From a virus (Duplodnaviria; Caudoviricetes): a stretch of 44,956 bases of DNA. Shown here one piece after another: positions 1,041 through 2,024 of this stretch. The position numbers and the translations under genes were made by a program. Numbering within the stretch: the stretch's first letter is position 1; the number at the start of each line of letters is the position of its first letter. Under the pieces are notes generated by a model that did not search any database, had not been told where the DNA came from, and worked only from the letters and a program-made list of their open reading frames with translations. Location of the stretch: positions 1-44,956 of the IMG/VR virus record IMGVR_UViG_3300027744_000037; one strand, given 5' to 3'.

Positions 1041-1120
1041 ATATAGAAACACACTAGGTATTTTCCTTTCGGTGGTCACCGCTTGCAACTAGATATGCGA
1101 TTGCCAGTGTGTTTTTATAT
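1041..1120 (-). ncRNA. structured inter-tRNA element (long closing stem with two internal hairpins)
   Basis: ATATAAAAACACACTGG pairs with CTAGTGTGTTTCTATAT (17 bp, one mismatch); internal GCAA/TTGC and CGGT/ACCG hairpins. Confidence 0.5.
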
Positions 1121-1193
1121 GGCTGGGGTACCTTGAATCGAACAAGGACCTACGGATTCAAAGTCCGCAGCACTACCACTATGCTATACCCCA
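1120..1193 (-). tRNA. tRNA-Gln(UUG)
   Basis: Acceptor TGGGGTA/TACCCCA, anticodon arm GCGGA-CT-TTG-AA-TCCGT, GCCA end. Confidence 0.95.
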
Positions 1194-1209: not shown

Positions 1210-1220
1210 TTTTAAAGAAC
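1210..1220 (-). promoter_or_regulatory. boxA-like Nus antitermination element upstream of tRNA-Gln
   Basis: Minus strand GTTCTTTAAAA, followed by the same ATTTGTTGTAGTT as the copy at 102-125. Confidence 0.7.
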
Positions 1221-1227
1221 AGTGTGT

Positions 1228-1280
1228 ATTGTATACCAGATTCGATGACCTGTCAACTACAATGTTGTATTGAAACAACA
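1228..1280 (-). promoter_or_regulatory. sigma70-type promoter of tRNA array with upstream palindrome
   Basis: TTGACA(1251-1256)-17 nt-TACAAT(1228-1233); TGTTG-N8-CAACA at 1263-1280. Confidence 0.8.
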
Positions 1281-1283
1281 AAC

Positions 1284-1313
1284 AAAAAACCCTAGATTTT
1301 TTAGGTCTAGGGT
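1284..1313 (-). terminator. intrinsic terminator (candidate attenuator 3:4 stem)
   Basis: ACCCTAGA-loop-TCTAGGGT followed by a U tract. Confidence 0.85.
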
Positions 1314-1346
1314 CTTGTGTTTGGAGTCTTTTTTAGAACTTATGTA

Positions 1347-1457
1347 TTAGTTCTCTCTCTTTACACAAAACCCGACCGGCGCCCATGAACTATCACCACA
1401 ATTAATTGTGCGATACTCGGACTGTAACGTAAAGGGTTTGTGTTTAAAATTTTTCAT
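1347..1457 (-). CDS. 36 aa leaderless leader peptide MKNFKHKPFTLQSEYRTINCGDSSWAPVGFCVKREN (candidate attenuator peptide)
   Basis: Hand translation; ATG 6 nt after a -10 box; all 20 amino acids in codons 1-28; overlaps alternative RNA pairings upstream of the terminator. Confidence 0.75.
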   Translation of the reverse strand: MKNFKHKPFTLQSEYRTINCGDSSWAPVGFCVKREN

Positions 1458-1463
1458 AGTGTT

Positions 1464-1492
1464 ATTATATAGGAACTTTTAAGCTTTGGCAA
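1464..1492 (-). promoter_or_regulatory. sigma70-type promoter for leaderless leader-peptide transcript
   Basis: TTGCCA(1487-1492)-17 nt-TATAAT(1464-1469). Confidence 0.75.
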
Positions 1493-1505: not shown

Positions 1506-2024
1506 TTATTTTTTTATATTTGTTTTCCATGCAATAGGGTGTGATAATATTGGACCTGAAGGATTCATAAAATCATTAAACGTTTCCCATAGATGTTCTG
1601 ATACGGCAAATTTTGTTAGTAATCCAGCTTCACGGCCATATGCATCTATTTCCCATGGCTGAACCCAATAATCTATTTTATCAGGATCAACTCTTTTACC
1701 ACGCCATCTGGTCAGTTCATCATTGGTTTCATTCTCTATGTATTGTTTTATATGCACCATTTCATGAGCCAGTGTTTCCAGTATTCTTCTGGATCCAATA
1801 TGTGGATGCAATTCAATTAGAAATTTTCTTGGTTGTTTTCTGGTATTGTAGTCTACAATACTGGCAAATCCATATTCTGTTATCTTTGGACTGAATCTTA
1901 TTTCAGTATAACAATGGTTGCGGATTCTTGTGTTGGCTATTAATTCTTTGGCGTAAAACTGAGCCGCTCTTTCAACAAAGGGCTTAAAATCTTTATCAGG
2001 ACAATTAAGTATGCGAACAATCAT
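1506..2024 (-). CDS. HExxH metallopeptidase-like phage protein
   Basis: LAHEMVH and PWEIDA motifs; start moved to the ATG after GGAG; CTAAATA late-promoter-like box at 2056-2062. Confidence 0.75.
   Translation of the reverse strand: MIVRILNCPDKDFKPFVERAAQFYAKELIANTRIRNHCYTEIRFSPKITEYGFASIVDYNTRKQPRKFLIELHPHIGSRRILETLAHEMVHIKQYIENETNDELTRWRGKRVDPDKIDYWVQPWEIDAYGREAGLLTKFAVSEHLWETFNDFMNPSGPILSHPIAWKTNIKK

Follow-up and report, generated by a model that had tools for sequence, protein, structure and literature searches.

A short reading frame in front of the tRNA array of a T4-like phage likely forms the sensing part of a ribosome-operated transcription attenuator that samples nearly the whole tRNA pool and gates the array, a reading drawn from comparative sequence analysis and folding models. 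The DNA analysed (called the window below, meaning the whole stretch) is a single contig of 44,956 bases, with PHROGs or Pfam matches to the T4-like major head protein, scaffold, tail sheath stabiliser, clamp loader, RegA-type translational repressor, Hsp20 and dCMP deaminase. It holds five tRNA genes, all on the minus strand, four of which lie downstream of the leader element; these were the only Rfam matches, and no T-box or other cis-regulator reached the gathering score. A blastn search against 50,697 cultured-phage records found the tRNA genes in 8 records only and the leader sequence in no cultured relative. The leader element and the gene before it comprise the following features.

1506 to 2024, minus strand: upstream gene of unassigned function (172 residues, PHROGs of unknown function), used as search anchor.
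1464 to 1492, minus strand: sigma-70-type promoter-like site P1, TTGCCA-17-TATAAT, with 11 of 12 consensus matches.
1347 to 1457, minus strand: leader reading frame of 36 codons with a leaderless ATG, all 20 amino acids in codons 1-28, frame conserved.
1434 to 1443, minus strand: segment 1, candidate anti-antiterminator, predicted to pair with segment 2 in untranslated RNA and to close a long hairpin over the frame.
1363 to 1377 (core 1373-1363, codons 29-32), minus strand: segment 2, putative 5' arm of the antiterminator, covarying with segment 3.
1304 to 1320 (core 1320-1310), minus strand: segment 3, common to antiterminator 2:3 and terminator 3:4 by folding and covariation.
1281 to 1316, minus strand: intrinsic-terminator-like hairpin 3:4 with U tract, predicted by folding, its stem pairs changing in concert across clusters.

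Every coordinate that the initial annotation gave for the promoter, the leaderless ATG and the 36-codon frame was found correct on the minus strand, the ATG lying 6 nt past the -10 box of P1. Promoter matches of P1 grade taken alone occur at chance level (14 found versus 14.5 in shuffles), and a promoter-like site is present within 90 nt upstream of the leader start in 95 of 136 listed related loci. The complete amino-acid set in codons 1-28 was likewise confirmed, with a chance probability of 4e-4 or less (P = 4.3e-4 with uniform use, 4.5e-5 with the amino-acid frequencies of 39 window proteins, and 8.5e-5 in random DNA of window composition). None of 12,057 28-mers from the 39 window proteins contains all 20 amino acids; of the 250 ATG-started frames in the window with at least 28 codons, none but the leader does so. 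The leader peptide has no Pfam, PHROGs or NCBIfam match. The upstream gene, which has no Pfam or NCBIfam match and carries a HEMVH motif (presumably zinc-metalloprotease-like), was regarded as outside the switch because upstream genes differ in other families; in many relatives a gene of about 500 nt is inserted between it and the leader. Elsewhere in the window (2896-2601, minus strand), a perfect TTGACA-17-TATAAT promoter is followed 7 nt later by an ATG and a 60-codon frame, a second apparently leaderless start, and this frame stops just before a lone tRNA-Met(CAU).

Relatives were collected in two ways. In the anchor search with the 172-residue upstream gene, for which the best 80 of 467 viral relatives were kept, 65 loci reached a tRNA, and 63 of them carry both the segment pattern and the frame, their leaders containing 20 amino acids in 49 cases, 19 in 13 and 17 in one (near-copies included); the other two (L071 and L072) have downstream tRNAs and no such element. 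The second search used an RNA pattern made of segment 2, segment 3 and the terminator tail, which is blind to coding content. The matches listed were 119 of about 130 viral loci, 120 of about 260 metagenome loci and 56 genome loci, and the next 450 nt contain a tRNA in 106 of the 119, 96 of the 120 and 2 of the 56, respectively. Pooling 458 listed loci with the window gave 233 distinct matches, 139 of them beside tRNAs and 136 with a start (the remaining three meet a contig end); L357, a metagenome locus, is identical with the window itself and enters these counts a single time, under the window. The other 94 matches, without a tRNA within 450 nt, represent bacterial leaders, chance matches and contig ends and were excluded from the statistics, several of the contig-end loci carrying leaders of the 19-20-residue type. 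A DNA pattern with the window's exact codons matched 0 viral loci, and a GGC-core variant matched 5, two of which precede tRNAs with leaders of 17-18 amino acids. The 2 bacterial-genome matches before tRNAs (L251 and L255) lie on short contigs assigned to MAGs, perhaps by mis-binning of phage DNA, and a cellular version is not thereby supported. The MAGs in which phage-type leaders were seen on short contigs (L251, L255 and L252) belong to Methylophilaceae, Bacteroidota and Saccharibacteria; these contigs are probably mis-binned phage DNA and at most a hint of the host.

Leader starts were chosen by promoter or Shine-Dalgarno context and never by amino-acid count. The 136 loci with a start encode 121 distinct leader peptides before tRNA arrays among the matches listed, with 20 amino acids in 84, 19 in 26 and 15-18 in 11. 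The expectation that homologues would keep the frame and near-complete coverage was therefore borne out (63 of 65 anchor loci; 110 of 121 listed leaders with 19-20 amino acids). Because segment 2 in frame 0 itself spells Gly, Phe, Cys and Val, coverage was also counted over the codons before segment 2 only (initiator Met included), which gave 20 amino acids in 40 of the 121 peptides, 19 in 43 and 18 in 24. The leaders form 29 clusters at 60% identity and 13 at 45% identity, and these are not independent. Set against base-shuffled frames free of stops, the median cluster member is significantly richer (p<0.05) in 22 of the 29 clusters and lies above the shuffle mean in 28; coverage before segment 2 is not significant in 7 of 29, and one cluster (L391), with 13 amino acids there, is below chance. 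Three divergent examples are MNKILSTISKQHTPMTNWSEGYCARSFDGGFV (L302), MIKTKHYFRPITRSISWQPSFYLEIGNACDSGQGVCV (L312) and MLPSLIHADYTKQSTLCGWINTRPVFLENRAGVL (L300); each stands in its own frame relative to segment 2, and they have little in common except coverage.

Several properties of these leaders concern content rather than order. Among 29 cluster members, exactly one copy per leader was found for Trp in 27, Cys in 28, Asp in 27, Glu in 24, Tyr in 23 and His in 22, whereas a Poisson expectation gives about 10-11 absences for each of these residues. The positions of Trp, Cys and Asp range over 16-26 codons, and their distance from segment 2 extends from -19 to -3 codons for Trp and from -30 to -4 for Cys. 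Other residues are repeated (per leader, Ser 3.9, Leu 2.7, Thr 2.3 and Ile 2.0), and the early remark that repeated residues often use different codons holds across the family, with 140 same-codon pairs where permutation of synonymous codons among the leaders gives 193 +/- 10 (p = 0.0002); both codon classes of Ile, Leu, Ser and Arg also co-occur above expectation. Codons read by wobble are frequent in leaders in comparison with window proteins (GAG 25/32 versus 21%, CAG 25/39 versus 23%, TAT 31/31 versus 64%), a preference to which shared ancestry or RNA structure could contribute.

Translation of the frame is indicated by the way in which it varies. Measured from three fixed DNA words to segment 2, all length variants are multiples of 3 (49, 16 and 32 loci with 5, 3 and 4 lengths), and stops occur in 51 of 58 alternative frames. 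With respect to segment 2, the leaders listed stand in three different frames (74, 43 and 4 of them). Starts among the leaders listed include a leaderless ATG (50) and a GTG with a Shine-Dalgarno sequence (28), and both types alternate inside one family, the ATG standing right past the -10 box and the GTG following a purine-rich Shine-Dalgarno-like stretch. In-frame indels, closed alternative frames, amino-acid coverage and codon non-reuse together argue for a translated frame selected for codon-class coverage and not for a peptide, which points to a leader whose content is under selection and whose order is free.

The RNA segments and their alternative 1:2 and 2:3 pairings were located in the window as claimed. 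The 1:2 duplex has an energy of -10.8 kcal/mol, the extended 2:3 duplex comprises 15 bp (1377-1363 with 1320-1304, -20.7 kcal/mol), and the terminator hairpin (1316-1286) has -12.7 kcal/mol. The region 1458-1275 is predicted to fold into 1:2 plus 3:4 with z = -4.9, none of 200 shuffles being as stable, and when its 5' part is removed the 15-bp 2:3 helix forms and the terminator is opened. A terminator scan reported the hairpin on the plus strand only, because the minus-strand loop measures 9 nt and the scan allows 8. The leader stop in the window lies 24 nt into or after segment 2, and 2:3 can re-form after the ribosome has passed. The 1:2/2:3/3:4 logic of the initial annotation is conserved in homologues as far as 2:3 versus 3:4 is concerned; the 1:2 pairing is strong in the window (-12.8 versus -4.8 kcal/mol, a strength reached by 0 of 40 shuffles of codon order) but not general, exceeding shuffles in 8 of 29 clusters and, by the duplex test, in 2 of 29. 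These counts do not support segment 1 as a family-wide feature. An internal hairpin inside the window frame was also considered and dropped, being no stabler than shuffles (z -0.9; mean z -1.0 over the 29 clusters).

Covarying 2:3 and 3:4 pairs in relatives, which had been proposed as a check, were indeed observed. Two 2:3 positions left free by the search pattern pair in 27 of 29 clusters each, versus 15.9 and 18.2 after partner shuffling (p = 0.0005), with U-A 18 and G-C 9 at one, and U-A 21, G-C 5 and A-U 1 at the other; this shuffle ignores relatedness, and the invariant core pairs are fixed by the pattern. The first 2:3 position outside the pattern pairs in 19 versus 13.9 shuffled (p = 0.0025), covariation at several further 2:3 positions is not significant, and terminator stem pairs change in concert. 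One locus outside the pattern (L065) has a perfect 11-bp 2:3 helix with a double change from G-C to A-U.

Folding with a masking ribosome, modelled as covering the RNA up to +13 from the A site and leaving the RNA 3' of it to fold, predicted how this choice would be made. As long as segment 4 is unmade, an A site at least 3 codons ahead of segment 2 lets 2:3 form in 29-30 of the 30 loci folded; at codon -2 a single one of the 30 forms it, and past that point none does. At full-length equilibrium with upstream stalls, 2:3 beats the terminator in 12-18 of 30 loci; because the terminator competes at this stage, the switch model leans on folding order. In the window at full length, 2:3 has a predicted value of 0.99 for stalls down to -4 and 0.16 at -3. 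When the whole RNA was folded round the mask, 2:3 appeared in 9-31 of 56 loci for upstream stalls and in 0 once segment 2 was covered, and naked RNA took the terminator fold in 47 of 56 loci. A-site codons up to 3-4 before segment 2 would therefore leave segment 2 free, in agreement with the earlier caution that a ribosome at the last few sensor codons may already cover it. The further claim that a stall at almost any codon frees segment 2 can be kept for a broad zone, codons 2 to 25 or 26 of the window leader, which includes 17 or 18 amino acids but neither Val nor elongator Met. Over all leaders listed, the zone covers a median of 18 of the 19 non-Met amino acids, internal Met being absent in 68 of 121 and Val absent before segment 2 in 53 of 121; among the 29 cluster members these absences (18 and 11, respectively) are at chance level.

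The region between the terminator and the end of the contig contains the following features.

1263 to 1280, either strand: palindrome GTTG-N8-CAAC, a putative protein-binding site 7 nt before the -35 box of P2.
1228 to 1256, minus strand: second promoter-like site P2, TTGACA-17-TACAAT, 11 of 12 consensus matches, downstream of the terminator.
1210 to 1220, minus strand: boxA-like element before the first tRNA, in 96 of 136 listed related loci.
1120 to 1193, minus strand: tRNA-Gln(UUG), first array gene and the first tRNA in 119 of 136 listed related loci.
943 to 856, minus strand: tRNA-Ser(GCU), array gene.
605 to 528, minus strand: tRNA-Cys(GCA), array gene.
97 to 23, minus strand: tRNA-Glu(UUC), array gene, the array being cut by the contig end.

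Complete-looking arrays of relatives mostly hold 23-31 tRNAs for 17-20 amino acids (22 of 25). The initial annotation had also proposed a feedback loop between leader codons and the downstream tRNAs, and in that form the argument has no force: array anticodons can read 0.80 of leader codons and likewise 0.80 of ordinary protein codons, and no leader-array association was found in 11 of 12 codon/anticodon pairs, so general codon matching was discarded. The remaining pair of the 12 tested is ATA with tRNA-Ile(UAU), a tRNA with an anticodon unusual for bacteria, which agree in presence or absence at 38 of the 41 loci belonging to the window's family (L003-L376) and, in loci with at least 20 tRNAs, in 23 of 28 (Fisher 0.001, uncorrected). 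On a tree built without almost all ATA-bearing codons, this amounts to 3-4 independent contrasts (sign test p 0.25-0.5), and the window has neither the codon nor the tRNA as far as its array is known (up to tRNA-Cys); the link is a lead and not a result.

Such figures bear on the idea that the switch is real and serves as a general gauge of translation speed or coupling (growth rate, ribosome damage, antibiotics or infection stage), its broad spelling averaging elongation time and not reporting tRNA supply. This is unlikely, if deserving of a place ahead of the other alternatives. It agrees with the identical predicted outcome of any stall in codons 2-25, with an array-leader codon match no better than that of ordinary genes, and with the E. 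coli toiL uORF, where the available text of PMC12121999 describes sensing of several antibiotic classes by stalls at many positions. A gauge of this kind needs neither exactly one Trp, Cys and Asp per leader nor the non-reuse of codons, and the ATA/tRNA-Ile(UAU) concordance also speaks against it, with too few independent contrasts to weigh much.

The array of the window has another possible source of transcripts. That P2 lies downstream of the terminator and makes the attenuator an additional input holds for the window and not for the family: a second promoter of this type, which could bypass the switch, occurs in 79 of 136 listed loci and is absent in 57, and in 17 of 29 clusters no member has such a site. 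The first tRNA begins less than 60 nt after the terminator in 41 of 136 listed loci (16 of 29 clusters), and only 7 nt after it in L302. Where the second promoter is absent and the tRNA is close to the terminator, no source of the first tRNAs other than the leader promoter is evident, and the attenuator reading is strengthened by the fact that the second promoter is not universal. The palindrome GTTG-N8-CAAC is present in 60 of the 79 listed loci with a second promoter and in 0 of the 57 without, an exclusive association that suggests protein control of P2; the palindrome is likely an activator or repressor site. Beyond P2, the window array contains three promoter-like sites. GTTG-N8-CAAC sites on the minus strand at 1280-1263, 527-510 and 207-191 stand 7-8 nt before the -35 box of three array promoter-like sites, another is found at 34977-34961, and the window has 7 strand matches in total versus 1.0 expected.

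It is accordingly conceivable, though improbable, that the attenuator works in relatives and is minor or vestigial in the window phage, where P2 with its palindromic site would drive the array. The 11/12 consensus of P2 and the three additional promoter-like sites agree with this, whereas the window element is intact, with 20 amino acids, the strongest 1:2 pairing and 2:3 at 0.99, and relatives that bear P2 keep 19-20 amino acids and in-frame indels. That the frame instead encodes a functional micro-peptide, with the hairpin a plain terminator before an array having its own promoter, is highly improbable: single-copy residues are indeed more conserved in the window's family (18% versus 52% changed) and the window and 79 of 136 listed loci have a second promoter, but residue order is permuted between families, three frames are in use, a changed single-copy residue in a second family reappears elsewhere 96% of the time (a value that misalignment can inflate), segment 2 inside the frame covaries with segment 3, 57 of 136 listed loci lack a second promoter, and the peptide has no match in the three family collections.

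Some further elements were noted in and around the array. The word at 1220-1210 is called boxA on the assumption that it corresponds to the rRNA-leader motif; a second boxA-like word occurs at 125-115 (minus strand), and both follow promoters, which suggests Nus-type antitermination across the array. At 1040-949 (minus strand) lies a tRNA-like gene of 92 nt whose acceptor stem has 8 bp and whose anticodon position reads UGA; it has a long variable arm, ends in CCA and was called by neither ARAGORN nor Rfam. We take it to resemble the non-canonical Sec-type or allo-tRNAs, and it also appears in contigs of RNA runs. Between tRNA-Gln and this gene, a short spacer (1112-1046, minus strand) can form a 9-bp closing helix, with a folding z of only -1.4. 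In freshwater metatranscriptome contigs (4 of 24 listed runs), a 283-nt piece (X2) covers 1106-1388 across the terminator; strand, ends, single transcripts and DNA origin are indistinguishable in such contigs, and the piece was given no weight as evidence.

Under the preferred reading, an attenuator gating the tRNA array, the host polymerase and ribosome would be coupled on the leader, the polymerase probably pausing past segment 2 while the ribosome loads, as the available text of PMC3082878 describes for trp/phe-type attenuation. With the A site 3-4 or more codons before segment 2, folding predicts that segment 2 would capture segment 3 before segment 4 is made; with the ribosome further on, segment 2 would be masked and the terminator would form, and untranslated RNA would also favour the terminator. 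A slow codon of almost any kind may thus hold the ribosome upstream, so that 2:3 forms and the array is transcribed, and the signal would be a shortage of charged tRNA caused by starvation, host tRNA decay or tRNA-cleaving defences. In the window phage the attenuator would be one of two inputs, the second and probably protein-controlled promoter also feeding the array. A fuller version, in which a 'pangram' leader in a widespread T4-like clade samples decoding codon class by codon class, favours wobble-read codons and is respelled with gain or loss of array tRNAs (ATA and tRNA-Ile(UAU)), seems somewhat favoured by the data; such a leader would be a protein-free alarm for tRNA-destroying immunity or starvation, switching on a complete replacement tRNA set.

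It has long been asked why phages carry large tRNA sets, and codon bias, host tRNA decay and anticodon-nuclease defence have been considered. If a sensor is wired to the array, the tRNA set would be made on demand, and the stress that opens the switch would be the stress that the array answers, which makes the question testable. Attenuation would also reach beyond one or a few amino acids and cover the whole code, and the element of about 200 nt could serve as a portable reporter of general decoding stress.

A literature search of mostly open-access full texts gave no description of an all-amino-acid leader before phage tRNAs, which catalogues of small phage genes or of structured RNAs could nevertheless contain as an unnamed entry. 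T-box riboswitches bind one uncharged tRNA directly and act without a ribosome, the choice between terminator and antiterminator being set by tRNA status. The phage element resembles them in that choice and would differ in its dependence on a ribosome, and no T-box Rfam match was found in the window. Phage tRNAs rescue translation after host tRNA cleavage by defences such as PARIS/AriB, and the available text of PMC12409363 deals with tRNA sequence and cleavage resistance and not with control of tRNA-gene transcription ('attenuat' occurs 0 times in it); rescue of this kind is likely the selective reason for an array sensor. In Anabaena PCC 7120, a long, horizontally moved tRNA array (the trn L-array) is induced by translational stress (PMC8421152), which is similar to the proposed phage case in that an array is turned on when translation is impaired. 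Its control is at the promoter, with direct repeats and a repressor, TrcR (PMC10272220), and neither 'attenuat' nor 'leader' occurs in the available text of PMC8421152. The toiL uORF of E. coli topAI-yjhQ is, like the proposed phage sensor, one short frame acting as a broad sensor of translation stress by stalls at many positions, and according to the available part of PMC12121999 it controls a toxin-antitoxin operon in response to antibiotics, at the level of translation initiation and of Rho-dependent termination. Unlike toiL, the phage leader is associated with an intrinsic terminator, and its breadth would come from amino-acid and codon coverage.

The closest comparison is with the attenuators of amino-acid operons, such as trpL, hisL and leuL and the multivalent thrL and ilvGMEDA. 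They share with the phage element a short leader frame, segments 1-4, the choice of 2:3 versus an intrinsic terminator 3:4, and a stop codon between segments 2 and 3. The same RNA pattern recovered leuA, asd and trpE-type leaders with identical core letters and 11-13 amino acids in bacterial genomes, which served as a positive control. Downstream genes were scanned for 3 of the 9 bacterial control leaders, all from MAGs. A Leu-rich leader (L221) is followed by 2-isopropylmalate synthase and a Thr/Ile/Lys/Met leader (L203) by aspartate-semialdehyde dehydrogenase, each identified above cut-off; the gene after a triple-Trp leader (L220) resembles anthranilate synthase I, with E 4e-121 and a score below the equivalog cut-off. 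Candidate attenuators of asd with Thr/Ile/Lys/Met leaders were noted in Hyphomonadaceae/Caulobacteraceae MAGs (L203, L207 and L247), of leuA with Leu leaders at six MAG loci (L221, L222, L229, L239, L244 and L245), and of trpE-like genes with a Trp leader in Chitinophagaceae MAGs (L220 and L204). In the bacterial controls, control codons end about 2-6 codons before segment 2, and masked folding of the nine gave 2:3 in 9 of 9 before segment 4 and in 0-8 of 9 at full length. They are predicted to switch alike, so the phage architecture appears classical and only its spelling and cargo differ.

Classical leaders, including pheL before pheA in the available text of PMC3082878, work by transcription attenuation. 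Their codons for one to four amino acids typically stand in runs and the genes under their control encode enzymes, whereas the phage leader has about one codon per amino acid, with several for Ser, Leu, Thr and Ile, and its output is a tRNA array. One codon per amino acid gives a weaker and shorter stall than the tandem codons of classical attenuators. In the phage element, a short frame upstream of the regulated genes is indicated by the conserved start and frame, in-frame indels and closed other frames; an intrinsic terminator 3:4 with U tract before these genes by prediction and covariation; and an antiterminator 2:3 exclusive of 3:4, with a maskable segment 2, by covariation and a predicted switch at -3/-2. 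Where classical leaders would have tandem control codons specific to a small number of amino acids, the phage leaders have 17-20 amino acids, mostly single, versus 8-16 in the bacterial controls, and in place of genes making or charging the sensed amino acid there are tRNA arrays. Judged by sequence and modelled folding, the leader element works like a leader-peptide attenuator and would fit that architecture, and it would stand outside the amino-acid-specific class because of its single codons and its tRNA cargo.
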